A stretch of DNA of 64,000 bases. It comes from a bacterium. GTDB lineage: Bacteria > Patescibacteriota > Minisyncoccia > Phycocordibacterales > UBA2100. The stretch spans positions 82,600 through 146,599 of the forward strand of contig JAEUQT010000003.1 in NCBI GenBank assembly GCA_016789445.1. The letters run 5' to 3'. The translations under genes were made by a program, and so were the position numbers. Below, piece after piece: positions 2,277-50,343 of this stretch (the first letter of the stretch is position 1; the number at the start of each line of letters is the position of its first letter). The notes under the pieces are model-generated. The model was not told where the DNA came from. It searched no databases and worked only from the letters and a program-made list of their open reading frames with translations.

Positions 2277-2299
2277 ATCACCTTCAAAAGGTGATACAT

Positions 2300-3867: not shown

Positions 3868-4052
3868 GACGACTCAGTGTGCAACACTTGACGCCGCACA
3901 TCAAGCGTTACCTTATTTTTCAGAATCTTCATTTTCCGGCTCTAGCGCTCACCATCCACATCCCCCACTTGCCGCCAATCGCGTGCGGGCGTATATCTGC
4001 GGCAGAAGTCGTCCCGAAGTGGGAACGACCGTAAACGTCCAAGGAGATTGGA

Positions 4053-4406: not shown

Positions 4407-4441
4407 AAAAGACGCGCCCGCAGCAGTGCTGCGGGCGTTTC

Positions 4442-4681: not shown

Positions 4682-4813
4682 CTGCGGTCCCTTTCCCTGT
4701 AGGAGCAATCTAAAAATGCACTATACCCGCTTGCAGTCATTTTTCAAGGTACCGCTGGACAACGGCTGCGCGAAGCATATGCTGCCAGCGGGACTAACCA
4801 ACGGAGGAAAAAG

Positions 4814-5068
4814 ATGAATAATCTGCTCGAAGGAGCGAGGGATGTCGCCATCGGACTCGTCGTGTACGCAACAGGCGTCTTCCTGGTGATACTCATCGGA
4901 CAGTTCCTGACGCCCAAGGGCGTCCTGTCGATGGCACCGGTCTACACCTGGCTCGCGTACATCAGCCGACCGGACATCCTCGTTACCATGATCGGTGCTG
5001 GGATCGCGGTCAAATACGCATCACAGCTCTCGTGGGCACACTCATCTGAACCTAATAGGAGGAAATAA
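4814..5068 (+). CDS. hypothetical membrane protein (84 aa)
   Basis: GGAGGA Shine-Dalgarno sequence; two hydrophobic helices; hairpin GGCCCGC-ACGCTA-GCGGGCC plus T-run follows. Confidence 0.6.
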   Translation: MNNLLEGARDVAIGLVVYATGVFLVILIGQFLTPKGVLSMAPVYTWLAYISRPDILVTMIGAGIAVKYASQLSWAHSSEPNRRK

Positions 5069-5103
5069 GTCCTAGGCCCGCGGCCCGCACGCTAGCGGGC
5101 CTT

Positions 5104-7740
5104 TTATTTTTTCTTCTTCGTACGCTTCGCGAGCTCGCGCTTGAGGTACGTGCCAGTGTGGGAGCCTGTTTTTTCCGCGACTTGCTCCGGAGTGCCCTTC
5201 GCGACGATCCTGCCGCCATTGGAACCGCCTTCAGGACCGAAATCGACGAGATAGTCGGCGGATTTCAGGACATCGAGATTGTGTTCGATGACGACCACGG
5301 AATTACCCCGATCGACGAGACGCTGGAGGATCTCGATGAGCTTCGCGACGTCGTCGTAGTGCAATCCCACGGTAGGCTCGTCGAGGAGGTACATGGTCTT
5401 CGTCTGGTGCGGACGATACAGTTCCGACGCGATCTTCACGCGCTGCGCTTCTCCGCCGGAGAGCGTCGTCGCGCTCTGCCCGAGCTCGAGATACGAGAGG
5501 CCGACATCCATGAGGGTCTGCAGACGATCAGAGATTGCCGGGATGTCTTGGAAGAATTCGGTCGCTTCCTCCACCGTCATCTTCAAGACGTCGTGGATGC
5601 TCTTCTTCTTGAACTTCACATCGAGCGTCTCTTTCATGAATCGCTTGCCGTTGCAGACATCGCACGTGACGTAGACCGTCGGGAGGAAGTGCATTTCCAC
5701 CGCGACCATACCGTTCCCTTCGCACGCTTCGCAGCGGCCGCCTTTGCGGTTGAATGAGAATCGCGACGGACCCCATGCGCGTGCTTTTGCCTCCTCCGTC
5801 ATCGCGAAGAGATCGCGGATGTGCGTCCATGCGCCGGTGTAGGTAGCAGGGTTCGATCGCGGCGTGCGGCCGATCGGCGATTGATCTATCAAGATACTGC
5901 GGCCGAGGTACTCGGTGCCGGAAAACTCTGCAACGTTGTACTGCTTCGCGGTGCGGAAGCGCTTATCGAAACGGGCCTGCAGGTTGCGATGGAGGATCTC
6001 GTAGAGGAACGTGGATTTACCGGAGCCGGAGACGCCGGAGATGACGACGAGTTTGCCGAGCGGGATCTCGACATCCTGATTCTGGATGCTGAACTTCGTC
6101 GCGCCTTTTATCTTGATCTTTCCCTTATCCTGCGTGCGGCGCTCCTTCGGGACTTCGACGCGGACTTCGTCACGTAGGTATGCAAGCGTGCGCGAGCCGG
6201 ATTTGTTCGTCTTCGCGGTAAGGAGATCTTCCAGCCACCCATCGGCGACGATGTTGCCACCGTGCGTTCCGGCGCCGGGGCCGATATCCACGATGTAATC
6301 AGCGGCGAAAATGGTGTCTTCGTCGTGCTCGACGACAAGGACGGTGTTTCCTAAGTCGCGCAGACGCTTGAGTGTCTCGATAAGGCGATCGTTGTCTCTC
6401 TGATGGAGACCGATGGTCGGCTCATCCAAGACATAGAGCGCTCCCACGAGACCGGAGCCGAGCTGTGACGCAAGACGGATGCGCTGCGCTTCCCCGCCGG
6501 AGAGGGTGTTTGCCTTACGATCGAGGGTGAGGTACTCGATGCCGACGTTGAGCATGAATTGGACGCGGCTGGAGATCTCCTTGATGACCGCCTTCGAGAT
6601 CTCCATCTCTTTTTCACTCAACTGAAGCGCATCGAAAAACTTCTTTGCGTCCTCGATCGACATCGAGCTCACTTCGACGATGTTCTTACGGGATTCCTCC
6701 TTCCCCTTCGTGTACAGGTAGACGTGAAGCGCTTCGTTGCGCAGACGCGCGCCCTTGCAGGTCTCGCACGGCTCATCGCTCCAGATGTACTTGGTGCCGA
6801 TACCGTTACAGGTCGGGCACGCGCCGTACGGCGAGTTGAATGAAAAGAGACGCGGTTCGACTTCCGGAAATGAGAAGCCATCGTACGGGCACATGAACTT
6901 CGCGGAGACGATCTTGCCTTCGCCTCCCGGCTCATAGATCTTTACGAGCCCCTCGGCCTCGTGGAGCGCGCGCTCGATCGCTTCGGAGGCGCGTTCGCGG
7001 GTTCCCTTCGGATCGTCATTGAATTCGCTGACGAAGATCTCATCGACGATGATGTCGATGTCGTGCTTGAAGTTCTTTTTCAGTTCCACTCTCTGACGGA
7101 GAGAGTGCTCATTGCCGTCGATGATCGCTTTCTCAAAGCCCTTGTTGAGCATATCGTAAAGGAGCTGGTAGTACTCGCCCTTACGGCCGACGACCATCGG
7201 TGCGGCGATGCGGATTTTTGCCTTGGAAACTCCTGACGTAAGCGCTTCAGGATTCGCTTTCTTGAGTGCCTTCGAGGTCTTCTCGACGGATTTCAAGATG
7301 GAATCGAGGATTTCTTCATTCGTGAGCTTGCGGACCTCGCGATCACAGATCGGGCAGTGCGGATGACCCACGCGCGAGTAGAGGACGCGGAGGTAGTCGT
7401 AGATTTCGGTGATGGTCGCGACCGTGGATCGCGGGTTGTTGGAGCGGGACTTCTGGTCGATGGAAATCGCCGGTGAAAGGCCGCTGATCTCGTCGACATC
7501 CGGCTTCTGCATCTGGCGGAGGAATTGTCGCGCGTAGGCGGAGAGCGATTCGACGTACTTGCGCTGACCTTCCGCGAAGATGGTATCGAACGCGAGTGAT
7601 GACTTCCCCGAGCCCGAAAGGCCGGTGAATACGATCATTGTGCCGCGCGGCATCTCCACACTCACGTTCTTGAGATTGTGCGTGCGGGCGCCCTTCACGA
7701 TGATGCTGCCTTCCGTAGTGTGTTTCTTGTTCTTTTCCAT
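5104..7740 (-). CDS. uvrA: excinuclease ABC subunit A
   Basis: Two ABC ATPase modules (GLSGSGKSS, GVSGSGKST, two LSGGE signatures) and zinc-finger cysteines. The start is set at MEKNKKHTTEG; the upstream part of the 936-aa ORF looks non-coding. Confidence 0.92.
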   Translation of the reverse strand: MEKNKKHTTEGSIIVKGARTHNLKNVSVEMPRGTMIVFTGLSGSGKSSLAFDTIFAEGQRKYVESLSAYARQFLRQMQKPDVDEISGLSPAISIDQKSRSNNPRSTVATITEIYDYLRVLYSRVGHPHCPICDREVRKLTNEEILDSILKSVEKTSKALKKANPEALTSGVSKAKIRIAAPMVVGRKGEYYQLLYDMLNKGFEKAIIDGNEHSLRQRVELKKNFKHDIDIIVDEIFVSEFNDDPKGTRERASEAIERALHEAEGLVKIYEPGGEGKIVSAKFMCPYDGFSFPEVEPRLFSFNSPYGACPTCNGIGTKYIWSDEPCETCKGARLRNEALHVYLYTKGKEESRKNIVEVSSMSIEDAKKFFDALQLSEKEMEISKAVIKEISSRVQFMLNVGIEYLTLDRKANTLSGGEAQRIRLASQLGSGLVGALYVLDEPTIGLHQRDNDRLIETLKRLRDLGNTVLVVEHDEDTIFAADYIVDIGPGAGTHGGNIVADGWLEDLLTAKTNKSGSRTLAYLRDEVRVEVPKERRTQDKGKIKIKGATKFSIQNQDVEIPLGKLVVISGVSGSGKSTFLYEILHRNLQARFDKRFRTAKQYNVAEFSGTEYLGRSILIDQSPIGRTPRSNPATYTGAWTHIRDLFAMTEEAKARAWGPSRFSFNRKGGRCEACEGNGMVAVEMHFLPTVYVTCDVCNGKRFMKETLDVKFKKKSIHDVLKMTVEEATEFFQDIPAISDRLQTLMDVGLSYLELGQSATTLSGGEAQRVKIASELYRPHQTKTMYLLDEPTVGLHYDDVAKLIEILQRLVDRGNSVVVIEHNLDVLKSADYLVDFGPEGGSNGGRIVAKGTPEQVAEKTGSHTGTYLKRELAKRTKKKK

Positions 7741-36941: not shown

Positions 36942-37982
36942 CTACCTCCGACGCGTCTTTTTGCGCCTGAGTTCCTTCCGCATCGCGGCTACTGCCGAGA
37001 CGTTCCGCCCGATCTGCTCCGCGATGTCCTCATCGCTGAGGGATTTGTCCTCGAGGAGCTTCACGTGACCAGCCGGCCACTCAGTACCGTGGCTTCGTGC
37101 CGTCGGCACGTTGCCGCTGCTCTTGCGGATGTTGATACCGAGCGAGACACGTCCACCGGCAGAAATCCGATCGCGGATTCGCCGCGAGGCTTCTTCCAGT
37201 TCGAGATGCACCTGCATCAGCCGTCCACGTTCTTCAGGCGTCATCTCTGCACTCTCGATGAGAGCGAACGCCTGCTCGACGCTTTGGCGGATGCCTGCAA
37301 CACGCAGACGGTACTTCTGCACCGTCATCTCGCGCGGCTTCCCTGCCTGGCCGACATAGCGAGCCTGCCGTTCACGGATAAGCTGCGTTGTCTCACCGGC
37401 AGCAAGCCCTTGTCGCACGACTTCCTGTGCGACCGCGACCTGCTCTTCGCCGACGATGATGTTCGCGAGAACGACCGCCGTACTTGGCGCAAGAGAACCT
37501 TCCGCGACAAGATGCTGGACACTCGGAGCGAGATCGAGAAGCTTGAGCCGATTCCGAATATGCGAGACGTTTTTACTTAACCGCTTCGCGATATCCGACG
37601 GCTGCAACCCGTACTCCTGGAAGAGCCAGAGGTACGCATTCGCTTCTTCGAGAGGATCGAGTTCTTCACGCTGCACGTTTTCCGCAAGCGCGAGAACGAC
37701 GATATCGCACGGACTTGAGACGTCGACGATCACGCACGGGATCACGGTGAAGCCGCCGGCTCTCGCAGCCCGAAGGCGTCGAGAACCTGCAACGAGGGTG
37801 TAGTACCCGTCACCACGCTCCGACACGATCACGGCCTGCATGAGGCCGTCGCGCATCGATCCTGCCAGCTCGAGAAGCGCCTCTTCCGAGTACTTCTTGC
37901 GCGGCAGGTACGGATCTTCGATGATCCGATCGAGCGCGATGTCACGTAAGTTCCTGCCGACGAACGGCACGATTTCCGCCAT
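36942..37982 (-). CDS. ParB/Spo0J-like N-terminal domain protein with atypical C-terminal region
   Basis: AGGAGG Shine-Dalgarno sequence. ParB box (LVAGSRRLRAARAGG) and an HTH (SDIAKRLSKNVSHIRNRLKLLDL). The C-terminal ~150 aa is unlike canonical ParB and ends in a SANT/Myb-like helix segment and a basic tail. Confidence 0.8.
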   Translation of the reverse strand: MAEIVPFVGRNLRDIALDRIIEDPYLPRKKYSEEALLELAGSMRDGLMQAVIVSERGDGYYTLVAGSRRLRAARAGGFTVIPCVIVDVSSPCDIVVLALAENVQREELDPLEEANAYLWLFQEYGLQPSDIAKRLSKNVSHIRNRLKLLDLAPSVQHLVAEGSLAPSTAVVLANIIVGEEQVAVAQEVVRQGLAAGETTQLIRERQARYVGQAGKPREMTVQKYRLRVAGIRQSVEQAFALIESAEMTPEERGRLMQVHLELEEASRRIRDRISAGGRVSLGINIRKSSGNVPTARSHGTEWPAGHVKLLEDKSLSDEDIAEQIGRNVSAVAAMRKELRRKKTRRR

Positions 37983-38055
37983 TAGTTCCTCCTTTCTGTG
38001 CTGAAGGTGACCAAAGACCTTCTGTTTGCATACAACCATTACACTATAGGCGTGT

Positions 38056-38089
38056 CAAACAAAAGACCGCACCTCGAAAGGTGCGGTCT
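38056..38089 (-). terminator. intrinsic terminator
   Basis: AGACCGCACC-TCGAAA-GGTGCGGTCT with TTTTGTTTG on the minus strand. Confidence 0.75.
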
Positions 38090-38945
38090 AATTCTCCTGA
38101 TCCGAGCTCCTCAGGAAGGGTCGAAGGTGCTTGATGCGACGCTTGGTCTGCCAGACTTTGATGACGGTATCGTAGGGTATGCCCGCTTTCTCGACGGCAT
38201 TCTCCCAGGTCCCGAAATAACGATACCCGGCCTCCAGCAAGGGACTATCCTCTATCTCCATGTCTCCATGACTCAGAGAATAGCCCGCACGCGCACGCGC
38301 ACGAATGGAAACGATAACGAGCTTCTTAGACCAATACCGCACGATCCATCCTTTCTTGACGCGATCATACGTAAATCCAGTAGCTTCGATCACCGCCTTC
38401 CAACTGCCTTTGAAATGCCGCATCCCCGCCAGATAGAGCGCCTCGTCATCTTTGCGTACCGCGCCGATGTTGAGATCACGACCTGACGCTGCGCGCTCAC
38501 GCATACGCTCGACGACAAGGGCTTTCGACCAGTACGGCTTCGGTTTTGGAAGTCTTTTTCGTACCTCCGCATACGAAAAGCCGCTCGCCTCGATTGCCTT
38601 TTCCAAACTGCCTTCGAACTGACGAAGCGCCATCGATAACAGCGCAGGCTCCTCTCGACGCAGGTCTTTCGAACTGATCGACTTGCCGCTTGCGTGTCGA
38701 TCTTGGATGCGTCGGATGACTTCAGCTCGACGATCGATTGGCCTTTTGACTTTTCTTCGTCGAGGAAGATCAGTGGCACGCGTAATACGCACAGCTTTCT
38801 TCCATCCTTCCGGAAAGAATCGCTGTACGGTCTTCAGCAGTGCAGGATCGCTATTGAGCACATCCAGATACCGCATGGAGAGCCCTGTCTCGATTCGTCG
38901 CCGAATGCGATTCATCGCGACCCGACGCGTGATTCGTCGTGTCAT
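38088..38945 (-). CDS. protein made of four homing-endonuclease-associated-type repeats, no nuclease domain seen
   Basis: 285 aa. Four ~60-aa repeats of the form WSK..V...I..R...G..L.......D..L......F.GSW..A.E..G..Y, for example FKGSWKAVIEATGFTY and FGTWENAVEKAGIPY. Confidence 0.6.
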   Translation of the reverse strand: MTRRITRRVAMNRIRRRIETGLSMRYLDVLNSDPALLKTVQRFFPEGWKKAVRITRATDLPRRRKVKRPIDRRAEVIRRIQDRHASGKSISSKDLRREEPALLSMALRQFEGSLEKAIEASGFSYAEVRKRLPKPKPYWSKALVVERMRERAASGRDLNIGAVRKDDEALYLAGMRHFKGSWKAVIEATGFTYDRVKKGWIVRYWSKKLVIVSIRARARAGYSLSHGDMEIEDSPLLEAGYRYFGTWENAVEKAGIPYDTVIKVWQTKRRIKHLRPFLRSSDQEN

Positions 38946-39489: not shown

Positions 39490-39888
39490 CTATCCGCGCT
39501 TGGCGATGAGTTCGTCGACCGCCGCGACGATCTCCGAGGGGATGTACTGCGCTTTCTGCAGATACGCATCCATACCCAACTCGGCGAGACGTTCTTTCGC
39601 ACCTTCGCGGCCTTCGTTGGTGAGCGCGACTTTGATCGCTCGCTTGGCCAGGCCCTCTTTGGTGACGGCTTCGACGAATTCGTAGCCACTGCGACTATCC
39701 GGCATGGTGACGTCGAAAAGAATCACATCTGGTTCGTACTGGCCGCTGCGCAGCAAGTCGAGCGCGTTGTCAGCTTTGTAGTAGGTGGCCACTTCATACC
39801 CGCGCTTCTCGAATGCGAGTTTGTACATCTCGAGGAGGAACGCTTCATCGTCGAGCATCAGGACTTTGGGCTTCATTTCTCCATTCAT
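39490..39888 (-). CDS. stand-alone response-regulator receiver domain protein
   Basis: CheY-like pattern: VLMLDDE, ILFDVTMPD, ALTNEG...K. No output domain and no adjacent kinase. Confidence 0.85.
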   Translation of the reverse strand: MNGEMKPKVLMLDDEAFLLEMYKLAFEKRGYEVATYYKADNALDLLRSGQYEPDVILFDVTMPDSRSGYEFVEAVTKEGLAKRAIKVALTNEGREGAKERLAELGMDAYLQKAQYIPSEIVAAVDELIAKRG

Positions 39889-40245: not shown

Positions 40246-40491
40246 GTGGTGCGAAGAAACGGCCGTCTCTTCGATTTCTGGAATCGGAAATTTGAAGAGC
40301 ACGAACGACTGAACGGAATCGATGGAGGAATTACGGTGTTTACAGCACCGGAATACCATAATCTTTCAGGTTCGCGTGAACGTCTGCAAAGACGACTTGA
40401 ACGGATCTCGGTAATATTCGTTGTTGGGTGGTCTGCTGGTGCTATAGTGTTTATAACTCTTGCATTCGTCGCCTTGAAAGGAGGTTCATGA
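40246..40491 (+). CDS. membrane protein, C-terminal part of the same frame (GTG start if independent)
   Basis: 81 aa. A charged segment, then one TM helix. In frame with 39991-40233 (offset 255 nt), with only the TAG between them. Confidence 0.45.
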   Translation: MVRRNGRLFDFWNRKFEEHERLNGIDGGITVFTAPEYHNLSGSRERLQRRLERISVIFVVGWSAGAIVFITLAFVALKGGS

Positions 40492-40607
40492 TGAAATCGC
40501 ATGAGATCTTTGCGGTTACGGTCGGAACAATTGGCGTTCTTCTGATGTTTGTGACCCCTGCGCTAATCAGCGCATGGAATCAGTGGAAGGAACGCAAGGA
40601 TCGTTAA
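40488..40607 (+). CDS. small membrane protein (39 aa)
   Basis: AAAGGAGG Shine-Dalgarno sequence. The ATG overlaps the previous TGA. Hand translation: MMKSHEIFAVTVGTIGVLLMFVTPALISAWNQWKERKDR. Confidence 0.45.
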   Translation: MMKSHEIFAVTVGTIGVLLMFVTPALISAWNQWKERKDR

Positions 40608-40619
40608 CCCACTTCTTCA

Positions 40620-40650
40620 GCCAGCTTCAATCGAAGCTGGCTTTTTTCTT
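40620..40650 (+). terminator. intrinsic terminator
   Basis: AGCCAGCTTC-AATC-GAAGCTGGCT followed by a T-run (coordinates +/-1). Confidence 0.75.
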
Positions 40651-41344
40651 ATCCAAGAAGTCCCCAGCCAGTTGATTCGCCTCGATCTTTCGCGCAGAGG
40701 AGCTTGAGGGTCCTCCCTTCCTTTACAAATCGGAGGCCGCTTTGGATTTTGCACTTCGCGCAGCGGCCTTTGGCCTTCTCCCATGCCGCCGCTTTGGCGG
40801 CGGCCCCGAGGTAGCGTTCTTCTTCAAGCGCCGCGTCTTTGTCGCGGCGCGCTCGGTCGGCGGGCAGTAGAGAGAATTTGAAAATCTTGCGGCCGTTTTC
40901 GGTCACACCCGCCGCATCCACGAGATCAAAGATGCCTTTGTCGAACCACACGCCTGGATCGAGCTTCTCATACACCTGTATCTGGAGCGGCTCTTTGCGT
41001 ACGCCGTCCTTGAAGGCGTTCGCCGCTTTATAGAATTTCCCGTTCTCGGTCAGCTTGTCGCCGCCATACATGAGGAGCTGGTCGTTCGATTTCCCTTGCG
41101 TTTCTTTCGTCGTCGAATCGTGTCCCTCGAAGGAATAGATCTGCTTTTTCGGATTCCATTCGTCGCGGAACTCGCCATCGTCTTTCTGCAGGACGAGGAA
41201 GACGCTCAGGAGTTCTCCCTGATGGCGGAAGTTCATGCTCTTCTGCAGCATGATGCCCTCGCGCTCCATCAGCTCGTTGGCCGAGAGGATAGACGTCGCG
41301 CGTTGTGGCATGTGCACATCGCCTAAGAAATTGGACATCGGCAC
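40649..41344 (-). CDS. hypothetical protein: SRA/YDG-like (PUA-like) domain plus degenerate HNH-like C-terminus
   Basis: 231 aa with a GTG start. YSFEGHD...NDQLL..GG...PLQIQVYEKL..GVWFDKGIFDLVD...GRKIFKFSLLP resembles SRA-type modified-base readers. The C-terminus AAWEKAKGRCAKCK...TLKLLCAKD resembles the start and end of an HNH finger but lacks the His residues. Confidence 0.55.
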   Translation of the reverse strand: MPMSNFLGDVHMPQRATSILSANELMEREGIMLQKSMNFRHQGELLSVFLVLQKDDGEFRDEWNPKKQIYSFEGHDSTTKETQGKSNDQLLMYGGDKLTENGKFYKAANAFKDGVRKEPLQIQVYEKLDPGVWFDKGIFDLVDAAGVTENGRKIFKFSLLPADRARRDKDAALEEERYLGAAAKAAAWEKAKGRCAKCKIQSGLRFVKEGRTLKLLCAKDRGESTGWGLLG

Positions 41345-41419: not shown

Positions 41420-42058
41420 ATGCGTCATCTTACGAAACACGCGCGTGAGCGCATCCTGCTTCGTACGGAATTGAAGCCTGAGAATGTATTGCAGCTAATC
41501 AATGACAGTGCCGCAATCAGTTTGGGCAAAGGTGAAATCTTCGAATACCTGCTCTTTTTCTCCCCTTTCGACCTCTGCTGCAAGATCGCGGTTGTGAGTC
41601 ATGATTGGGGAAATATCGTGTCTGTTTGGGACGAAGATTTCGATCTACCTGAAGGGATACTTGTGCCGACCGAACGCGACCGTTACAAGGCCAAGAAACT
41701 CTATCAAGCATTCACGTTCCGCCGTATCGGTGAAAGACAGCAAACGGCGGAAGGTCTGCCTTATTATTCGGCAACGATCGATGTCGTAGTCGAGGCCAAG
41801 ACTGTCTATTCGCACGCTGCCGGTGAAATCACGCGTTCTCAAGGCACATTCAAGAAAGAATGCATCAAAGCAATCTGGAAAGAATTGTCGACGCTTGCTA
41901 GCATCACTGAAGAGAATCGCGACAAGCTCCACGGATTCGTGCAATACCAGATCTCACTTAAGGCATTGAACGGCATTCAGGACTTCAAGCGCTACGCTAT
42001 CTCTCATAAAAAGGTCCTCCGAAAAGGAAGACCGATCACTCGACAGGCTGCCGAATAG
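41420..42058 (+). CDS. hypothetical protein with DUF4258-like N-terminus
   Basis: Promoter TTGCTA-16-TATAAT and an AAAGGAGG Shine-Dalgarno sequence. The N-terminus MRHLTKHARERILLRTELKPENV...KIAVVSHDWGNIVSVWD resembles the DUF4258 (HAxxR..R) toxin-like fold. The remaining ~130 aa is unassigned. Confidence 0.6.
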   Translation: MRHLTKHARERILLRTELKPENVLQLINDSAAISLGKGEIFEYLLFFSPFDLCCKIAVVSHDWGNIVSVWDEDFDLPEGILVPTERDRYKAKKLYQAFTFRRIGERQQTAEGLPYYSATIDVVVEAKTVYSHAAGEITRSQGTFKKECIKAIWKELSTLASITEENRDKLHGFVQYQISLKALNGIQDFKRYAISHKKVLRKGRPITRQAAE

Positions 42059-42072
42059 GCAGCCTGTTTTCT

Positions 42073-42552
42073 TTAAAACTCTGCGTCGGCTTCGGCCAAA
42101 AGTGCATCCAGATCCAAGGGGAGCGAGGTCATCTCCACCATACCGTCGTTGGATACCTTCCACTCACCTTTCGGGCGGTCGGCATATATCTCCACGCCGT
42201 TATTGTCCGGATCACGCAGATAGATGGCTTCGGAGACGCCGTGGTCGGCTGCGCCTTCGATCGGATAGCCCGCATTGGCGATGCGCTTCAGCGTGTTCGC
42301 GAGGGATTTCCGGTCGGGATACAGGAACGCGACGTGATACATGCCCGCGTATCCCGGCGGCGCCGGCTTCACGCCTTCTCCGTTCCACGTGTTCAGTCCG
42401 ATGTGATGGTGGTAGCCGCCGGCGGAGAGGAAGACGGCGCTCGTGCCATACTTCGCCGTAACCGCGAACCCCAAGAGGTCGCGATAGAACGCTACCGAGC
42501 GTTCGAGGTCGGCGACCGTGAGATGGATGTGTCCGACGATGGGGTGGGTGCT
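42073..42552 (-). CDS. VOC-family (glyoxalase/dioxygenase-like) protein
   Basis: GHIHLTVADLERSVAFYRDLLGF and HHHIGLNTW patterns. The start is set at MSTHPIV to avoid overlapping the upstream toxin gene. Confidence 0.8.
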   Translation of the reverse strand, partial: STHPIVGHIHLTVADLERSVAFYRDLLGFAVTAKYGTSAVFLSAGGYHHHIGLNTWNGEGVKPAPPGYAGMYHVAFLYPDRKSLANTLKRIANAGYPIEGAADHGVSEAIYLRDPDNNGVEIYADRPKGEWKVSNDGMVEMTSLPLDLDALLAEADAEF

Positions 42553-42565
42553 CATATTCTTAAGA

Positions 42566-42853
42566 TTATCCGAAAAGTTCTGAATGGCTGCCAATGTCTA
42601 TGAGCACCAATATCAAGACTTCGTTTCTCACTTCGTACACCAACAAGAGATCACCTTTGATATGACATTCGCGATATCGCTTTACATCCCCAGTCAGCTG
42701 ATGGTCTCGATACGATGCCGGCAGCGACTTGCGCGCAGCGAGAGACAGAATCACATCTTCGAGCTTTTTCATCAGGGCAGGTTTCAATGTCCCGGATTTC
42801 TTCAGTTTCCGGAACGATCGTTCGAACTGTTGCGTTCTGACGACGCCGTACAT
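42566..42853 (-). CDS. type II toxin, RelE/YafQ family mRNA interferase
   Basis: 95 aa. F.RSFRKLKK...YRDHQLTGD...YRECHIKGDLLLVYE...LVLIDIGSHSELF is the YafQ-type signature. Confidence 0.85.
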   Translation of the reverse strand: MYGVVRTQQFERSFRKLKKSGTLKPALMKKLEDVILSLAARKSLPASYRDHQLTGDVKRYRECHIKGDLLLVYEVRNEVLILVLIDIGSHSELFG

Positions 42854-42860
42854 GCGAGCA

Positions 42861-43109
42861 TTATAGCCCCTTCAACGCATCGCGCGCGCTATACACTTTC
42901 CCCTTCTTCAGAGCATCAGCAACTTCCTTGTCCCATTTCGCTGCTATCGAAGCCATGTTTTTCGTAGGAGTGAATGGCAATCCTTTTTCAAGAGCGACCT
43001 GATGGAGAAATATTTTCACACCCGATGACAAATCGAGACCGACATCACGCAATACCTTGCTTGCCGCTTTCTTGGTTTTCTCTTCGATCCGAATGTTAAG
43101 CGTAGTCAT
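42861..43109 (-). CDS. type II antitoxin, RelB/DinJ family
   Basis: From MTTLNIRIEEKTKKAASKVLRDVGLDLSSGVKIFLHQV, a ribbon-helix-helix DinJ pattern. Lies 7 nt upstream of the toxin. Confidence 0.8.
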   Translation of the reverse strand: MTTLNIRIEEKTKKAASKVLRDVGLDLSSGVKIFLHQVALEKGLPFTPTKNMASIAAKWDKEVADALKKGKVYSARDALKGL

Positions 43110-43167
43110 ATGTAGAAAGTATATACATTGTATACACATTGTCAATACACTCACATATTACATACGA

Positions 43168-43641
43168 CTAGAATACCACTATCGTTTCAAAATTGGTGAC
43201 GGGCGGCGTGTAATCGGGAGAGGTTTCTTCGAAGGTGCGCTTTTGGACGAGATACTTCCCATCCTGCGCGACGATCTTAAAATAGTGCCCGAGACCTGCG
43301 TAGTAGCAGATGATCTGATCGGATTTCGGATACACGTCGTCGTCCGGTGATGGATACGTATTGCAGGTGCCATCGACGGTGTCGATCTCCTTCGTGCGCG
43401 AAGTGCCGTCGAAATACATGGCGCGCAGCGTGATCTTCGTGCGCGGGATCTCCCCGCTCTCGTCGGTCGAGTAGCTCCAACTGAATGTCGGCTCCCCGTG
43501 CGGCACTTCCTCTCCCTGAATCACCGGCTCAACCGCCACATCCACCACAGGCCAGAACGCGTTATATCCCGCAATCACGACAACTGCAGCAACCACGAAT
43601 GCGAGGAGGTATCTGAGTGCTGTGGGCATATGGAGGCTCAT
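43168..43641 (-). CDS. hypothetical membrane-anchored exported protein (157 aa), paralog of the N-domain of 27388-28224
   Basis: TM anchor plus the shared IPRTKITL...GTS...DGTC...ICYYAGLG pattern. Confidence 0.6.
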   Translation of the reverse strand: MSLHMPTALRYLLAFVVAAVVVIAGYNAFWPVVDVAVEPVIQGEEVPHGEPTFSWSYSTDESGEIPRTKITLRAMYFDGTSRTKEIDTVDGTCNTYPSPDDDVYPKSDQIICYYAGLGHYFKIVAQDGKYLVQKRTFEETSPDYTPPVTNFETIVVF

Positions 43642-43893
43642 TTAATCACCTTTCTCACCAAGCTGCTCATCGATGCTGGTCGCGGCCTCCTTAACGTCTT
43701 CCAATTCCGAACGTATATCCTCCATCTGGCTGCTTAGCTCACCCTCCTCCTGTTCGATCTTAGCTTCAATCAATTCGAGCTTTTCCATCACATCCGCATG
43801 TTGCGATTCTTGCGCGTCAATCAGCTTTTCCATGAGCTCGGAGAGCGCGTCAACATCCTGACGGAGCTTCTTGATCTCGGGATTATCGAACAT
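43642..43893 (-). CDS. acidic coiled-coil protein (83 aa)
   Basis: Heptad-rich, E/D/L-rich sequence. Its stop abuts the start of the next gene, suggesting coupling. Confidence 0.55.
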   Translation of the reverse strand: MFDNPEIKKLRQDVDALSELMEKLIDAQESQHADVMEKLELIEAKIEQEEGELSSQMEDIRSELEDVKEAATSIDEQLGEKGD

Positions 43894-43926
43894 GGCTATA
43901 GTATGTACCTTTTATAATTTAAAGTC

Positions 43927-44196
43927 TTATTTTTGCTCCCCTCCATCTTCGCCGAATAAATGATCCCCAAAAATTGGTCTCGTACGTGGATTCTTAAAAA
44001 CGGACGTTGGATCTTTATCCTCTTCTACAGTTAGGAGAAAGAGGCCTCCGGTATCGAGAAGAAAACCATTCATGTGCTCCTCGATTACTCTCTTACCTAC
44101 AGCATCAGATGCCGTCTTTTTGTCGGGAGCTTCGAGAAAATAGTGCCATAGCACCGTTCCTTCAGTCGGGTGAATGATTTCGGCATAGAATTTCAT
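43927..44196 (-). CDS. hypothetical protein downstream of hsdR (start uncertain; the ORF opens at 44262 with TTG)
   Basis: ORF track; low GC like the R-M genes; no family recognised. Confidence 0.4.
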   Translation of the reverse strand: MKFYAEIIHPTEGTVLWHYFLEAPDKKTASDAVGKRVIEEHMNGFLLDTGGLFLLTVEEDKDPTSVFKNPRTRPIFGDHLFGEDGGEQK

Positions 44197-44291
44197 AAGT
44201 TCATGCTGGCACAAATGCTTGGAAAGTATTGTATGCTCAGATTGCGGCAATAAACCTGCCAATTTTTCCGCTCAGTTGCAAATATAGAACC

Positions 44292-47200
44292 TTAACGTCG
44301 AAGTATTGAACCTTCAGAAATGCCAATGAATCTCTCGAAGAAGCTCGTCAATTTATTCAAGACACTATCACGTTTCCGCGAGCGCTCTCCACTTGGGGAG
44401 AAGCGAGAAACTGGTGGCAGCACCTTTGTGAGTGCTGTCCCCGTTATGGCGACTGCGCCGTCGCGAAAGGCATTTTGAACGAAATTATAGGTGGCATCAG
44501 GATCCAGATTTTCATCCTTGATGATTTGGTCCAATTCTTCCACTTTCTTTTCCTCCACATACTTCTGCCAATCCTCGTCCACGACCGAATTCGCATCGAG
44601 CGATGAAATGAATTTGTTGATGAGGTCTTTCTTGTTGCGCAATTCAACGCTCGAATCGATTGCCTTGTTGATGTCAATCAAGAGCTCTTTGTTCTTAGTA
44701 TGGTCTTCGTGGTACTTCTTGATGAGGGCAAGGATGTAATCGATATTGATCTCGATCTGCTTAATGAGCTCCATCTCAAACACCAGATCGTCGTTGATGT
44801 TCTCTTTCTCCTTGTCGATGCTGGTACGGAACTCGTTGTACAGATCAATGTACATGCTGTGGTAGTCCTGCAGATCTCGCGCAGAAAGTATTTCGTTTCC
44901 CGTGAACTGGTCGAAGGTCACCAAGATATTGCGCAACCGCAATACAGCGCCGTACAGCTTTATGAAGTCCTTTTGGCTCTGTTCACCCATAATGCGCTCG
45001 CCCACAGGAAACTTTTCCAGAAGTTCGTCTACCAAGCTCTTGTAGCCCCGCACCTCCTTGTTACGTTCCGTGTAGCCGTTGTAGTAGTCCTCGTATGCTT
45101 TGAGAAGCACGATGCCGCTCGCTTCCTTGTCTCCGAAAAGAGCGATTGCTTCGTTGGTAGCTTTCTCTAAATTGCGGAAGCAGACGATATTGCCGAAGGT
45201 CTTCACGCTGTTAAGGATGCGATTCGTACGGGAATATGCCTGCAGTAGCCCGTGGAGTCGGAGATTCTTGTCCACCCACAGCGTGTTGAGTGTGGTGGCA
45301 TCAAAACCGGTCAGAAACATATTGACCACAATGAGAATATCAATCTCGCGACTCTTTACGCGCTCACTCACGTCTTTATAGTAGTTTTGGAACTTATCTG
45401 ACGAAGTATCGTACGATGTGCCGAACATCGCATTGTAGTCGGCGATAGCACTCTCTAAGAACTCACGCGAACTAGCATCAAGTCCGCTAGTGTCTTCCGA
45501 GTTTTCATCAACCATCCCGTCGGCATCCTCGTCGTTGACGCCAAAACTGAAGATTGTGGCGACCTTCAATTTTTTGTCACTGGGAACGTCCGCGAGCTGT
45601 TTTTTGAACTCGGCATAATACTTCTTTGCGACATCAATGGAAGACACCGCGAATATTGAATTGAAACCGGCAAGGCGTCTGTCTTTCAGCTTGTAAAAGC
45701 TATTGCGCTTTGTCTTTTGGTCGAAGTGTTCGCGTATATAACGCACGATATTCTCGAGTCGTTCAGGCGAAGCGAGAGCTGCCTCACGATCTATACCGCT
45801 CACTTGCTTGTCCTCGATGTCTTCCGCTTCGCGGATTGTGGAGACGTAATCAACCTTGAAGGGCAACACGTTCTTGTCCGCAATCGCGTCCACAATCGTA
45901 TACGTATGGAGCTTGGTGCCGAATGCCTGCTCGGTGGTCTTTAGGTCTGGACGACCACCAGACGAGGCGTTTGCGGCAAATATTGGCGTACCCGTGAAGC
46001 CAAATAGGTGGTAGTTATTAAATGCCTTGGTGATAGCGGCATGCATGTCGCCGAACTGCGAACGATGACACTCATCAAAAATAAGCGCTACATGCCCATC
46101 AAATATGGTGTGTCCGCTGTTGCGCGCTATGAAGCGGTCGAGCTTTTGGATGGTGGTAACGATGATGCGAGCCTTAGAGTCTTCAAGCTGCTTTTTCAAT
46201 ATTGATGTCGAGGTGTTGCTGTTCGCCGCTCCTTTCTCAAACTTGTCATACTCACGCATTGTCTGATAGTCGAGATCCTTGCGGTCTACGATGAAAAGGA
46301 CCTTGTCGATGTACGACAATTTGCTGGCAAGTTGTGCTGCCTTGAAGCTGGTGAGCGTTTTACCCGATCCAGTGGTATGCCAGATGTATCCACCTGCCTC
46401 TACCGTGCCTAGCTTTTTATAGTTGGTACTTACCTCGATGCGGTTCAAAATGCGCTCTGTAGCCACTATTTGATACGGGCGCATAACCAGCAGTTGGTGG
46501 TCGGTCGTGAACACGCAATAGCGTGTGAGGACATTGAGGAGCGTATGCTTGGCAAAAAACGTCTTAGCAAAGTCCATGAGGTCAGCAATCGGCTTGTTGG
46601 TCGCATCTGCCCACCAACTGGTAAACTCAAAGCTGCTGCTCGAACGCTTACCACGCTTTGCTGCGCCTTCGTTTGCTTCCTTGATATGCTGCCAGCGAGT
46701 CGTATTGCTGTAATACTTCGTATGCGTGCCATTCGAGATAACAAAAAGCTGGATGTATTCATAAAGCCCCGAAGCCGCCCAGAAGCTCTCGCGCTGATAG
46801 CGATTAATTTGGTTGAATGCTTCTTGAATAGCCACCCCACGACGTTTGAGTTCAATGTGGACTAACGGCAAGCCGTTCACGAGGATGGTCACGTCATAGC
46901 GATTCGCGCGCGCACCATCCTCGGTCGCGTACTGATTTATGACCTGTAACGTGTTGTCATGCACGTTGTCTTTACGGAGTAGGTAGATGTTCTTTGTGGA
47001 GCCATCATCCCGTGTGAGATTTTTTATGTAGTCCTCTTGAATGGTTGCTGTCTTTTCTTCAATGCTCTGGTTAGGGTTGGCTATTTCACCCTTAAAGAAC
47101 CGTTCCCACTCCTTGTCGGTAAAGATGTAATCGTTGAGCTTCTCAAGCTGGGTGCGGAGGTTTGCAATGAGGTCGTCTTCGCTTGTGATGGGGAGGCAAC

Positions 47201-47354
47201 CATAGGCCTGGGATTCGAGCTGCTCGATAAACGCACGTTCAAGCTCCGCTTCGCTCTGATAGTGTTCCGCGCGGTTCTTGTCCGGCGTGTATTCAGCTAC
47301 GACGGTGCTCTGCGCGTTCTCGGCAACTAAATTGTATTTGTTATTAACTGACAT
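44292..47354 (-). CDS. hsdR: type I restriction enzyme, R subunit
   Basis: 1020 aa. An N-terminal nuclease region and an SF2 helicase core (TGSGKTLT, DECHRSQ, and later motifs). Confidence 0.95.
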   Translation of the reverse strand: MSVNNKYNLVAENAQSTVVAEYTPDKNRAEHYQSEAELERAFIEQLESQAYGCLPITSEDDLIANLRTQLEKLNDYIFTDKEWERFFKGEIANPNQSIEEKTATIQEDYIKNLTRDDGSTKNIYLLRKDNVHDNTLQVINQYATEDGARANRYDVTILVNGLPLVHIELKRRGVAIQEAFNQINRYQRESFWAASGLYEYIQLFVISNGTHTKYYSNTTRWQHIKEANEGAAKRGKRSSSSFEFTSWWADATNKPIADLMDFAKTFFAKHTLLNVLTRYCVFTTDHQLLVMRPYQIVATERILNRIEVSTNYKKLGTVEAGGYIWHTTGSGKTLTSFKAAQLASKLSYIDKVLFIVDRKDLDYQTMREYDKFEKGAANSNTSTSILKKQLEDSKARIIVTTIQKLDRFIARNSGHTIFDGHVALIFDECHRSQFGDMHAAITKAFNNYHLFGFTGTPIFAANASSGGRPDLKTTEQAFGTKLHTYTIVDAIADKNVLPFKVDYVSTIREAEDIEDKQVSGIDREAALASPERLENIVRYIREHFDQKTKRNSFYKLKDRRLAGFNSIFAVSSIDVAKKYYAEFKKQLADVPSDKKLKVATIFSFGVNDEDADGMVDENSEDTSGLDASSREFLESAIADYNAMFGTSYDTSSDKFQNYYKDVSERVKSREIDILIVVNMFLTGFDATTLNTLWVDKNLRLHGLLQAYSRTNRILNSVKTFGNIVCFRNLEKATNEAIALFGDKEASGIVLLKAYEDYYNGYTERNKEVRGYKSLVDELLEKFPVGERIMGEQSQKDFIKLYGAVLRLRNILVTFDQFTGNEILSARDLQDYHSMYIDLYNEFRTSIDKEKENINDDLVFEMELIKQIEINIDYILALIKKYHEDHTKNKELLIDINKAIDSSVELRNKKDLINKFISSLDANSVVDEDWQKYVEEKKVEELDQIIKDENLDPDATYNFVQNAFRDGAVAITGTALTKVLPPVSRFSPSGERSRKRDSVLNKLTSFFERFIGISEGSILRR

Positions 47355-48552
47355 ATTCGGGGAAGGTTAAGAGCTTGCCTCGATAGTATTCGTACTGTTT
47401 GCGCCGTGCCGAGATTTCCGCCGGGAGACCTTCGGATTTGTCATTCACAAGCGCATCAAACTTGTCCAGAATTGACACAATATGTTCTTGCTCTTCCTCT
47501 GACGGAACTGGTACGGGTATCTTGTTGAGGTTTGTTTTGTTGAGCTTTGGTTGTGCTCCTCCGCTGACATAAGATCGTAAATCGATAGAATTCAAATAGA
47601 TCTCAATCAGACGTCGCATTGCATAACTCTCAAACTTAAGAACATGAGCGTGGTTATTGACCCAGGTCTTTCCTGAAATCGAAAAAGCGATTGGCGTCGT
47701 TCTTGCAAGAAGATTGGCTCCATCTTCTGAAACAAGTAAGTAGTCACCCTCAAATATGTAGTCGCTAACATAGTCAACAATGCCGGACGCCCCATAGTAA
47801 GGAACGTTTCCAGCCGTCCGTGCTGATCGCGTGACTGGTTTACGCTTTGAGTCTAAGTTGATGGAAATTCTATCGAGCGTCGTCCATCTTACTCTCTCAC
47901 TCTCGTTAAACGTCAAGAGCTCAGAACGATAATGCTCGTATTGCTTCCCTCTCGCTTCTAACTCTGCTTCTAACTCTGCTTCTAACTCTGTAAAAGCATC
48001 GAGGATGCTTGCAATCTCCTGCTGGATTTCAAGTGGCGGAACGGGAATTTTGATTGATGCCAATGTTGCCATTCGTACTCCTTTAAGCGTACTGCCGACC
48101 GATTGACTTTGATACTGGTCCTTTGCGATGTCTGAACCAAGGATATACATCAAATACCTTGGCAATATTGTTTCTTGCTTGGGTTTTATGATGAAGACAC
48201 TTTCACTGCAATTCCAGTTGTTTGTCGGAATATCTGCCAATGCAACTTTTCCAATAGTTCCAATACCAGAAAACAGCACGTCGTTCAATTCCAAGTCAGA
48301 GCGGTTCTGAATTATTCTTACAGCTTCATCATTAATCTTATCTGTCTTGTCACTGAACTGAACCTTACCAGAAGTAATCTCCTTGACCGTTACATAAAAA
48401 TTGGTTGCGTCGGGCGTATTCAATCTGAAATTCTGGCGCGGATTCAATCCTGTCTTAATTGATTTTGTGATAACTCCCAACTCCCTAAACTCCACACCTT
48501 TCGAGCATTTTTCAGCAATCAACTTTTCAATTTGACTCTGGTGTTTGGTCAT
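47344..48552 (-). CDS. hsdS: type I restriction enzyme, S (specificity) subunit
   Basis: 402 aa. Two target-recognition domains separated by a central coiled-coil region containing (ELEA)x3. Overlaps hsdR by 11 nt. Confidence 0.92.
   Translation of the reverse strand: MTKHQSQIEKLIAEKCSKGVEFRELGVITKSIKTGLNPRQNFRLNTPDATNFYVTVKEITSGKVQFSDKTDKINDEAVRIIQNRSDLELNDVLFSGIGTIGKVALADIPTNNWNCSESVFIIKPKQETILPRYLMYILGSDIAKDQYQSQSVGSTLKGVRMATLASIKIPVPPLEIQQEIASILDAFTELEAELEAELEARGKQYEHYRSELLTFNESERVRWTTLDRISINLDSKRKPVTRSARTAGNVPYYGASGIVDYVSDYIFEGDYLLVSEDGANLLARTTPIAFSISGKTWVNNHAHVLKFESYAMRRLIEIYLNSIDLRSYVSGGAQPKLNKTNLNKIPVPVPSEEEQEHIVSILDKFDALVNDKSEGLPAEISARRKQYEYYRGKLLTFPEYVS
47954..47989. repeat. 3 x 12-bp perfect tandem repeat inside hsdS
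   Basis: GCTTCTAACTCT x3 on the + strand, encoding ELEAELEAELEA in the central conserved region. Confidence 0.9.
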
Positions 48553-48554
48553 GG

Positions 48555-50156
48555 TTATTTTTTACCTTCAATATCAGCAACGATAGCGTCGATAGCGTTA
48601 CGGAGTTCGTTTTGGCGAGCGACAATGTTCGCAATACTCTCGTTCAGCTCCTTGATATCAACTACCTCACGAGTGTCTTTTCCGTCCACATAGCTTGAGA
48701 CCGAGATATTGTAGTCGTTCTCCGCAATATCATTGTTGTTCACCAGCGCGGCAAAGTGCTCAACGTCTTCTCGGTCAATAAAGGCATCGAGGATCTTTTT
48801 GCGATTTGTTTCGCTGAGTTTGTTCTTATTGCCACTGCGAACGAACTCGGTCGATGCGTCAATGAAAAACGTCTTATTGTCTTTCTTACTCTTTTTCAGA
48901 ACAATTACGCAGGTCGCAATAGTTGTGCCGAAGAAGAGATCCGGCGGCAGCTGGATTACAGAGTCGATGTAGTTGTTGTCTATGAGATACTTGCGGATCT
49001 TCTGCTCTGCACCACCGCGATAGAGCACGCCAGGGAACTCGACGATGGCTGCCGTGCCGTTCGTCGCAAGCCACGAGAGCATGTGCATTGTGAATGCGAG
49101 ATCCGCTTTGCTCTTAGGCGCGAGTACACCTGCCGGAGAGAAACGGGGGTCGTTGATGAGAATGGGATTAGCGTCACCCTCCCATCGGATTGAGTAGGGA
49201 GGGTTCGATACGATGGCCTCAAATGGCTCATCGTCCCAGTGCTTAGGGTCTGTGAGAGTATCACCATGCGCGATATTGAACTTCTCGTAGTTGATATCGT
49301 GCAAGAACATGTTGATGCGGCATAGATTGAACGTGGTGAGATTGATTTCCTGTCCGAAAAACCCCTGACGTACTTTGTCTTTACTCAGTACCTTGGCGAA
49401 TTTGAGCAACAGCGAACCGGAGCCGCACGCAGGGTCATACACTTTATTGACTTCCTTTTTGCCTACCGTAGTTATCTCTGCCAGTAGCTCGCTTACTTCC
49501 TGTGGCGTAAAGAACTCGCCGCCGGACTTACCGGCGTTGGAGGCGTACATGGTCATGAGGAACTCGTATGCATCGCCGAAAGCATCTATTGAGTTGTCGG
49601 CATAGTCGCCAAAGCGCAAACCCCCTATTGCCTCAAGGAGCTTTGCGAGCTTCTGATTGCGTCTTTCTACGGTGTTGCCCAGCTTGCCGGAGTTAACGTC
49701 GAGGTCGTCGAAAAGTCCCTTGAGGTCATCCTCGCTATCTGCGCCCTTCGCGGAGCTCTCTATGTTGTTGAAGACGCGCTCAAGTGTTTCGTTGAGGTTC
49801 GCGTCATTCCGAGCGTTTTTTGTGACGTTTACGAACAGCTCGCTTGGCAGTATGTAAAAACCTTTCTCTTTTACCGTATCGGCGCGACCAAATTCAGCTT
49901 GTTTATCTGAAAGTGATGCGTAATCAAAATCCTTTTTTCCAGCACGCTGCTCCTCTTCATTGATGTAGCTCTCGAGGTTCTCGCTAATGAAGCGATAGAA
50001 GAGCATTCCAAGCACGTACTGCTTAAAATCCCACCCGTCCACACTGCCACGAAGATCGTTGGCAATCTGCCAAATGGCACGATGCAATTCTGACCGCTCT
50101 TGGTCTTTCGTGACTGCTGAACCTTGTTTGTTCACCATATAGTCGATCTTGATCAT
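48555..50156 (-). CDS. hsdM: type I restriction enzyme, M (N6-adenine methyltransferase) subunit
   Basis: HsdM N-domain (IWQIANDLRG...YVLGMLFYRFIS), the AdoMet motif VYDPACGSGSLL and the catalytic motif NPPY. The start is set at MIKIDYM (50156), 1 nt after the stop of the upstream mini-ORF; 50138 is also possible. Confidence 0.92.
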   Translation of the reverse strand: MIKIDYMVNKQGSAVTKDQERSELHRAIWQIANDLRGSVDGWDFKQYVLGMLFYRFISENLESYINEEEQRAGKKDFDYASLSDKQAEFGRADTVKEKGFYILPSELFVNVTKNARNDANLNETLERVFNNIESSAKGADSEDDLKGLFDDLDVNSGKLGNTVERRNQKLAKLLEAIGGLRFGDYADNSIDAFGDAYEFLMTMYASNAGKSGGEFFTPQEVSELLAEITTVGKKEVNKVYDPACGSGSLLLKFAKVLSKDKVRQGFFGQEINLTTFNLCRINMFLHDINYEKFNIAHGDTLTDPKHWDDEPFEAIVSNPPYSIRWEGDANPILINDPRFSPAGVLAPKSKADLAFTMHMLSWLATNGTAAIVEFPGVLYRGGAEQKIRKYLIDNNYIDSVIQLPPDLFFGTTIATCVIVLKKSKKDNKTFFIDASTEFVRSGNKNKLSETNRKKILDAFIDREDVEHFAALVNNNDIAENDYNISVSSYVDGKDTREVVDIKELNESIANIVARQNELRNAIDAIVADIEGKK

Positions 50157-50157
50157 T

Positions 50158-50343
50158 CTAACGCACAAGACTGATTCCCCACCCCAGAATGCTGAGAAAA
50201 AGAACCCAGCTGAGAAATTGCACAAAATGCCCATATGCCCCATGTACAACAGCACTCGCCAAGCGCCACAACGGATATAGCAAAAAGAAAGCTGCCCTCA
50301 GAACTGCATTGAGCAAATATTCCCACCATCGCTGTCTGTACAT
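50158..50343 (-). CDS. small 2-TM membrane protein (61 aa), first gene of the R-M operon
   Basis: ORF track (MYRQRWWEYLL...). Its ATG follows the shared 35-nt leader at the same spacing as in the NYN gene. Its TAG is 1 nt from the hsdM ATG. Confidence 0.5.
   Translation of the reverse strand: MYRQRWWEYLLNAVLRAAFFLLYPLWRLASAVVHGAYGHFVQFLSWVLFLSILGWGISLVR

Follow-up and report, generated by a model that had tools for sequence, protein, structure and literature searches.

A conserved SRA protein with a degenerate HNH domain in Patescibacteria, a candidate reader of modified-cytosine DNA

To our knowledge, proteins joining an SRA domain to an HNH domain are known only as modification-dependent nucleases. 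What, then, is a gene that appears to have kept the SRA part of such an enzyme and only the remains of the nuclease? The question is raised by a gene on the minus strand of a 64,000-nucleotide stretch of contig JAEUQT010000003.1 (assembly GCA_016789445.1; Patescibacteriota, Minisyncoccia), the whole of which is called the window here. The initial annotation described its product (the target below) as an SRA/YDG-like reader of modified bases fused to a vestigial HNH finger, and left open whether it was a disarmed type IV restriction enzyme, a sensor signalling to a separate effector, or simply a decaying gene. The results below indicated that the target is very probably a selectively maintained, nuclease-dead derivative of SRA-HNH enzymes. 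It belongs to a large clade, maintained by selection, whose members kept the sensor, lost the nuclease and gained new conserved peptides alongside; in the literature searched, no report of a conserved clade of nuclease-dead SRA-HNH proteins was found.

The open reading frame (ORF) reported at 40649-41344 was present on the minus strand as described. Read mechanically, it starts at a GTG (41344) and encodes 231 amino acids (aa), and this numbering is used for residues throughout. The real start is almost certainly the ATG at 41338, because MSNFLG is where the homologues, and the products of independent gene calls, start; in identical contigs from other samples, gene callers gave a product of 229 aa.

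Conservation of the family and loss of the HNH active site

As a single sequence, the target had no match in Pfam, NCBIfam, PADLOC or the PDB sequences, and its match in PHROGs was insignificant (E 0.2), so its family was unannotated. A full-length family profile also gave nothing usable against the PDB sequences. When the target was searched against 5.8 billion proteins, at least 189 clusters of homologues were found at E ≤ 0.01, and the cluster counts given below refer to the closest 120 of these 189. Almost all of the 120 were 200-253 aa long, "hypothetical" and without a Pfam domain. The few that were named came from Minisyncoccia, Kaiserbacteria and Paceibacterota, in other words from the candidate phyla radiation (CPR), or Patescibacteria.

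The origin of the C-terminal region was apparent from distant members of the family. A family profile searched against 1.84 billion representative proteins retrieved 556 representative clusters at E ≤ 1e-3. The distant members aligned with the target over its full length, and those that were scanned against Pfam carried an intact HNH or HNH_5 domain (P0141, an HIT-SRA-HNH protein, P0159, P0151 and P0238 are examples with intact Pfam HNH). Such nuclease-bearing relatives are called armed here, and the clade of the target disarmed. Residues 187-222 of the target aligned column by column with the intact Pfam HNH domains of distant members. The consensus of the armed domains was W.RD.G.C..CGS..NLH[FY]DH.IP[FY]SKGGSS....N[IV][RQ]LLCA[KR][HC]N..KSD, and the target read AWEKAKGRCAKCKIQSGLRFVK-----------EGRTLKLLCAKDRGESTGWGLLG at the same positions. 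The general-base catalytic His was replaced by K208, the structural Asn by T212 and the metal-binding Asn/His by R221, and the 11-residue "IPFSKGG" loop was deleted. The vestigial HNH proposed initially was thereby confirmed on evidence stronger than motif resemblance, and it was accurately described as starting and ending like an HNH domain without its catalytic core: in the alignment with full-length SRA-HNH homologues, what was missing was the catalytic triad and the 11-residue loop. The full-length profile matches to proteins with intact HNH domains also supported descent from type IV enzymes with SRA and HNH domains, of which TagI and ScoA3IV are examples.

Mutagenesis of TagI showed that all three of these HNH residues are essential (PMC6212794). 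Across the disarmed clade the equivalent positions 208, 212 and 221 were variable, and the [DE]H dyad was found in 0 of the 120 clusters. Because the His, the Asn and the metal ligand have been replaced, and the loop and the trailing alpha-helix are missing, cleavage by the target is not expected. By the catalytic property that defines type IV endonucleases, the target is predicted from its sequence to fall outside that class.

Of the HNH domain, only the scaffold of a putative zinc knuckle remained. The target kept W188, G193, R194, the pair C195-x2-C198, the beta-hairpin (L204, F206 ... L215) and C217-x2-D220, and an AlphaFold2 model was confident throughout this region (predicted local distance difference test score, pLDDT, 90-96). 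In an alignment of 32 homologues (51-89% identity), which also underlies the residue counts given below, C195, C198 and C217 were invariant. The fourth putative zinc ligand, at position 220, was H in 24 homologues, D in 7 and C in 1; in the 120 clusters it was His in 79, Asp in 33 (the subclade of the window) and Glu in 4.

Conservation extended over the whole length of the protein, with 37 invariant columns. These included F49-L52, G74-H75-D76-S77, D88-Q89, Y125-E126-K127, W133, D135-K136 and F157, so the motif blocks listed in the initial annotation (FLVL, GHDS, DQ, YEK, W.DK and F157) were real and were the most conserved columns of the family. Compared with closely related contigs, the ratio of nonsynonymous to synonymous substitution rates (dN/dS) of the target was 0.07-0.12 overall and 0.006-0.09 in the HNH remnant. 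The whole protein, including the remnant, is therefore under strong purifying selection. These data bear directly on the possibility that the gene is a pseudogene, a broken type IV restriction enzyme without function. Loss of every HNH catalytic residue and of the loop is what decay might leave behind, and isolated HNH-degenerate variants elsewhere in the family tree are possibly decay products. However, the same length and architecture recurred in at least 189 clusters, the cysteines of the putative zinc site were among the invariant columns, dN/dS was about 0.1 with the remnant included, the remnant was modelled with confidence, and new conserved motifs had appeared at both termini. Simple decay was rejected on these grounds, and we regard it as extremely improbable.

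The distribution of the two forms was examined in a genome scan that used one genome per GTDB species. Among the best 80 loci, 23 were disarmed (L007-L029); 21 of these were titled CPR or Patescibacteria and 2 only "bacterium". The other 57 (L030-L086) were armed, 52 of them with an intact motif, and came from Verrucomicrobiota, Bacteroidota, Ignavibacteriota, Nitrospirota and other groups, and in a few cases from CPR. In an intermediate CPR subclade (L023-L028) the loop and the Asn were still present and the D-H dyad was already gone. P0127, the closest armed relative, matched the disarmed profile at E 2.6e-66 and grouped with the disarmed clade in a rough neighbor-joining tree of the SRA domain.

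The new motifs at the termini distinguished the disarmed clade from its armed relatives. At the N-terminus, N5 was invariant and S4, F6, L7 and G8 were at least 90% conserved; the SNFLG motif was present in 109 of the 120 clusters and in 0 of the 52 armed loci. At the C-terminus, 100 of the 120 clusters, and again none of the 52 armed loci, ended in G-[LFI]-[LI] with no more than two residues after it, usually G. Both motifs occurred together in 92 of the 120 clusters and in none of the armed loci, and both lay in predicted disordered tails. Loss of the active site combined with both conserved terminal peptides was found only in the CPR clade. Loss of catalysis with gain of short linear motifs under selection looks like a pattern of neofunctionalisation. 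A role of these tails in binding the beta clamp was considered and rejected as unsupported, since they lack the Gln-led QLxLF consensus of beta-clamp-binding motifs. No other ORF in the window had tails of the SNFLG/GLLG type.

Scattered, independent HNH-degenerate singletons were also seen among the armed branches (P0139, P0144, P0150, P0160, P0163, P0168, P0176, P0178, P0180 and P0196). The HNH-degenerate variants outside the CPR clade had neither SNFLG nor GLLG; they may have arisen by decay or by further exaptation. Armed relatives had extensions of another kind: 43 of the 57 (within L031-L085) carried an extra tail of at least 15 aa after the HNH helix, which was hydrophobic in the sequences inspected (for example ...KSDKIMSVLPWLFAGAAAAPHIHKLSG) and might anchor the protein in a membrane or be amphipathic. 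Unusual fusions in the family were P0141, in which an HIT hydrolase precedes SRA-HNH, P0169, in which a PemK/MazF toxin domain is followed by the family region and HNH, and P0231, a Dam-like D12 N6-adenine methyltransferase fused to SRA and possibly truncated at a contig end. Armed relatives also stood alone, as expected for single-gene type IV enzymes, often beside toxin-antitoxin pairs, and PADLOC gave them weak generic HNH matches only.

The SRA domain and its base pocket

The AlphaFold2 model built from the alignment had a mean pLDDT of 84.3 and a predicted template modelling score of 0.81, with pLDDT below 50 only at residues 1-14, 78-84 and 226-231. All of the top 50 Foldseek matches to this model were SRA domains or SRA-containing proteins, and the fold proposed for the N-terminal domain, SRA/YDG-type, was confirmed in this way; it is a distorted beta-barrel. 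Two helices (residues 171-177 and 181-191, pLDDT 89-96) connect this domain to the remnant. A profile of the SRA region that included distant armed relatives matched the SRA domain of SUVH5 in the PDB across the whole domain (E 0.0019), and the armed relatives scored 20-25 bits against Pfam SAD_SRA, below its cut-off of 30.7 bits. In the alignment with SUVH5, Y/F-x-D of the family corresponded to "GGYND", Y/F-E-G-H to "YTGQ", and the Q of LQKGMNF to the Gln that starts the SUVH5 match.

SRA-HNH enzymes bind DNA containing 5-methylcytosine (5mC) or 5-hydroxymethylcytosine (5hmC) by flipping the base, and cleave nearby (PMC6765204, PMC6212794). In TagI, the thumb residue Gln35 takes the place of the flipped base, the pocket is walled by Tyr55 and Tyr67, and Asp58 reads the cytosine edge (PMC6212794). 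Roles were assigned to residues of the target by alignment to SUVH5 and TagI. The putative aromatic walls, F/Y59 and F/Y72, were kept in 30 and 32 of the 32 disarmed homologues, respectively, and D61, the carboxylate that would read the Watson-Crick edge of cytosine, in 31; G74-H75-D76 was kept in all 32 and the candidate thumb, Q34, in 23. The pocket signature has thus been kept in the disarmed clade, and as far as sequence alignment can tell, the N-terminal domain of the target retains the residues that hold a flipped 5-modified cytosine in TagI, UHRF1 and SUVH5. In both disarmed and armed relatives H-D stood in place of the canonical G-G, and this invariant pair may tune which 5-substituent the pocket accepts.

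The chances lean slightly towards the target being a non-cleaving reader of modified-cytosine DNA. It would bind duplex DNA that carries a base of the 5mC/5hmC type and flip that base into the F59/D61/F72 pocket without cutting. TagI dimerises via its HNH domains, which jointly form one DNA-binding site (PMC6212794). In SRA-HNH enzymes the HNH domain mediates dimerisation and contributes to a shared surface for DNA binding, which may be why the target has kept its putative zinc knuckle; if the knuckle still serves dimerisation and DNA contact, the target would be a bivalent reader. Its SNFLG and GLLG tails may be docking motifs that bring the bound reader into contact with itself or with a different macromolecule. 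Several outputs are conceivable: the protein could occlude foreign DNA that is modified, read methylation of the cell's own DNA, or recruit a factor encoded at an unlinked site.

Several points weigh against this proposal. The single sequence of the target reached no Pfam SRA model (PF02182/PF18491), having no Pfam match at E ≤ 1. The thumb position is H, T, S, E or K in 9 of the 32 members, and the invariant H75-D76 stand where canonical SRA domains have G-G, so the ligand could differ from 5mC or 5hmC. The fourth putative zinc ligand is Asp rather than His in the window's subclade, a role of the remnant in dimerisation is extrapolated from TagI, and the docking role of the terminal motifs is pure conjecture. 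Finally, the distribution of the disarmed form across CPR is patchy (the 23 loci among the best 80), so a dispensable, defence-like role is conceivable.

The relaxed thumb also bears on another possible ligand: instead of a base flipped from duplex DNA, the pocket might bind modified RNA or a modified nucleotide in free form. There are PUA-like domains that sense such free nucleotides: a preprint describes m6-dAMP binding by the PUA-Cal-HAD system (bioRxiv 10.64898/2026.01.15.699771), and YTH and EVE, PUA-like relatives, bind RNA (PMC7641849). Against this stands the retained signature of a pocket for flipped cytosine, and we consider a ligand of this kind improbable for the target.

The SRA domain was unusually rich in invariant polar residues (H75, D76, D88, Q89, E126, K127, D135 and K136), which raised the possibility that the target is still a nuclease or another DNA-processing enzyme that works through other residues, for example H75-D76 or Y125-E126-K127. 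Some PUA-like domains, such as ASCH, are indeed enzymes. However, the motifs YEGHD, DQ, VYEK and W..DKG were equally conserved in armed relatives that have an HNH active site of their own, which suggests that they fit ligand binding and not a replacement catalytic centre. In the remnant, no metal-binding constellation is left. A cryptic enzyme thus appears quite improbable. As a whole, the best explanation, and a reasonably probable one, is that the target is an exapted, nuclease-dead descendant of SRA-HNH type IV enzymes that reads modified cytosine.

The proposed partner and the genomic neighbourhood

The initial annotation had also suggested that the target might signal to the divergently transcribed gene at 41420, for which it read a toxin-like DUF4258 N-terminus. 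No homologue of the 41420 protein was found by tblastn in the 86 related loci first scanned, and the protein retrieved only itself from the 5.8 billion proteins. A copy that was 42-45% identical was present only in the near-identical contigs L089 and L090, where it lies 1.4 kb away behind another gene; adjacency to the target was thus not conserved. At E ≤ 1, hmmscan returned only GemA (E 0.13) and no DUF4258, there was no match in PADLOC or NCBIfam and none by tblastn in the phage collection, and the single-sequence AlphaFold2 model was unusable (pLDDT 34). The 41420 gene also differed from the target in guanine-plus-cytosine (GC) content (0.49 versus 0.564). Because this gene is a near-orphan, is not adjacent to the target elsewhere and has no recognisable domain, a dedicated reader-effector pair was not supported.

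The 41420 gene, which encodes 212 aa and is an orphan, opens an island (41420-50255) that also contains a glyoxalase, a YafQ/RelB pair, three unknown genes and a complete type I restriction-modification system (Table 1). GC content was 0.46 for YafQ/RelB and 0.43-0.49 for hsdR, hsdS and hsdM, with the glyoxalase (0.588) as an exception; the window mean was 0.554. Synteny of the window with L007, L008 and L087 extended to both sides of the target, the conserved genes being an AHSA1-like gene (52.7-53.1 kb), an NYN gene (50.5-51.0 kb), the target and a response regulator (39.5-39.9 kb). The island, situated between the NYN gene and the target, was absent from L007 and L008; in L008 the genes immediately before the target homologue are the AHSA1-like gene and one of 100 aa. 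In L088, whose target homologue is 88% identical, the upstream slot (516-5124) contained a GmrSD-type type IV enzyme, a Zeta toxin, an S24 peptidase repressor, and a methylase of the EcoRI family together with a NucS-like nuclease, and L087 had none of this cargo. Since close relatives fill the slot with other genes, it appears to be a recurrent landing site for defence genes. The toxin-antitoxin pair of the island was likewise present or absent among the otherwise identical contigs L092-L095, from the same strain population.

The target is therefore a resident gene bordering a hypervariable insertion site. It was judged resident because its GC content equals that of the genome, its flanks are syntenic with those in L007, L008 and L087-L091, and in several disarmed loci its homologue lies between tuf (EF-Tu) and the S10 ribosomal operon; it has been inherited as such in Paceibacteria-type CPR genomes. 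Many homologues sat among housekeeping genes (EF-Tu, the S10 operon, cyclophilin, RluD-like), and cyclophilin-like, M23-like peptidase and YgjP-like genes, named by eye from translations, surrounded those of the intermediate subclade. No neighbour gene family spanned the disarmed loci. The neighbourhood had been called defence-rich, and it does hold a type I restriction-modification system and YafQ/RelB, but these belong to an inserted island of low GC that adjoins the target, and the "defence island" context is not a property of the gene itself.

These observations bear on a defence role, in which the target would sense modified phage DNA and activate a separate effector, either the 41420 protein or an unlinked protein recruited via the SNFLG/GLLG tails. 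The target descends from a defence enzyme, its upstream flank in the closest strains is a hypervariable spot that has repeatedly held defence genes (the window and L088), a 41420-like gene recurs at a short distance in L089 and L090, and the conserved terminal peptides could be docking motifs. On the other hand, no neighbour family is shared across the clade, 41420 is a near-orphan of foreign GC without a recognisable toxin domain, many homologues have housekeeping neighbours, and the target has no PADLOC match. A defence sensor is unlikely on this evidence. For the target, tblastn against phage and plasmid collections gave no match. The one significant match among the BFVD viral structures was an SRA protein of a haloarchaeal virus, which gave no hint of a decoy version carried by phages.

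Another candidate partner was a stand-alone CheY-like receiver gene (39490-39888, minus strand). It was the conserved downstream neighbour in all relatives with at least 77% identity to the target (receiver identity 92-95% in L087-L091 and 62-68% in L007 and L008). It is a neighbour only in those relatives and is separated from the target in the window by a terminator and a convergent ORF; the association was treated as synteny rather than as a functional link. The target looks monocistronic in the window, because the likely terminator lies directly 3' of it, before the convergent ORF. This ORF (40428-40607, plus strand), for which the hairpin would be the terminator as well, encodes 59 aa with one hydrophobic helix (…IFAVTVGTIGVLLMFVTPALISAW…); no homologue of it was found in related loci.

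Further along (36942-38945, minus strand), a 365-aa ParB-like protein (ParB_N and HTH_ParB) is encoded beside a 285-aa protein with the homing-endonuclease-associated HNH_repeat. Neither had a homologue in any related locus, and the two could be another mobile or accessory insertion. No C5-cytosine methyltransferase was found in the window. Genes with C5-methyltransferase motifs (PCQ.FS and ENV) were located within 8 kb of a disarmed gene in two loci (L013:9876-11285 and L025:999-2342, both on the minus strand) and near none of the 57 armed loci, which would fit readers beside self 5mC in numbers too small to use.

Table 1. Positions in the window of the target gene, its parts and selected neighbouring features
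Feature	Position	Strand	Remarks
Whole target gene	40649..41338	-	229 aa from ATG 41338; stop codon 40649-40651
N-terminal peptide S4-N5-F6-L7-G8	41321..41335	-	Predicted disordered tail; specific to the disarmed clade
SRA (PUA-like) domain, residues 17-162	40859..41296	-	Q34, F59, D61, F72, G74-H75-D76, D88-Q89
Linker, residues 163-186	40787..40858	-	Two helices; invariant K184 before the HNH-derived module (AlphaFold2 model, alignment)
HNH remnant (putative zinc knuckle), residues 187-222	40679..40786	-	Column-wise alignment with intact HNH relatives
C-terminal tail, residues 223-231	40652..40678	-	Clade-specific G-L-L-G end; pLDDT <50 at 226-231
Putative terminator	40619..40642		GC-rich hairpin then T-run; 10-bp stem with 6 GC pairs; directly 3' of the target
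hsdR	44292-47354		Island beside the target
hsdS	47344-48552		Island beside the target
hsdM	48555-50255		Island beside the target

Comparison with known systems

Should the target bind modified cytosine and leave the DNA uncut, it would be one of the rare SRA proteins of prokaryotes that are readers only. It would in that case offer an experimentally tractable 229-aa model for the exaptation of restriction sensors into readers, and might serve as a compact affinity reagent for modified cytosine. A bolder version of this proposal, which is put forward tentatively, is that a lineage of ultra-small CPR bacteria turned a type IV enzyme into a dedicated, dimeric, non-cutting "epigenetic reader" of modified cytosine in the cell's own, its host's or invading DNA, with the newly evolved SNFLG and GLLG peptides recruiting further machinery. 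Eukaryotic readers such as UHRF1 and SUVH, which are thought to derive from bacterial SRA-nuclease fusions, would then have a parallel among bacteria. There is also a consequence for annotation, as screens based on domain architecture would miss this family, which has no Pfam match, or mislabel its relatives as restriction enzymes.

The nearest known systems are TagI (PDB 6GHS) and ScoA3IV/Sco5333, with which the target shares the two-domain SRA-HNH architecture by homology. These are active SRA-HNH type IV endonucleases, whereas the target has K208, T212 and R221 at the catalytic positions and lacks the loop and the trailing alpha-helix. The target clade further differs from them in its conserved SNFLG and GLLG termini, in a pocket motif that reads Y/F-E-G-H-D instead of Y-T-G-x-G-G, and in its restriction to CPR/Patescibacteria. 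ScoMcrA (PDB 5ZMM/5ZMN) is an SBD-SRA-HNH endonuclease dependent on phosphorothioate or 5hmC; the target has neither its sulfur-binding domain nor an active HNH, and is less than half its size. In MspJI, AspBHI and LpnPI, and in PvuRts1I and AbaSI, SRA is joined to a PD-(D/E)XK nuclease, which is of a different class, in a different domain order and catalytically active.

In SUVH5, KRYPTONITE and UHRF1 the SRA domain acts only as a reader, as is proposed for the target. There it is fused to SET, RING, PHD or Tudor effectors, whereas the only appendages of the target are the dead HNH knuckle and two short peptides. The reader state proposed for the target would go back to a separate loss of the nuclease in bacteria, and would not be a trait inherited in common with the eukaryotic readers.

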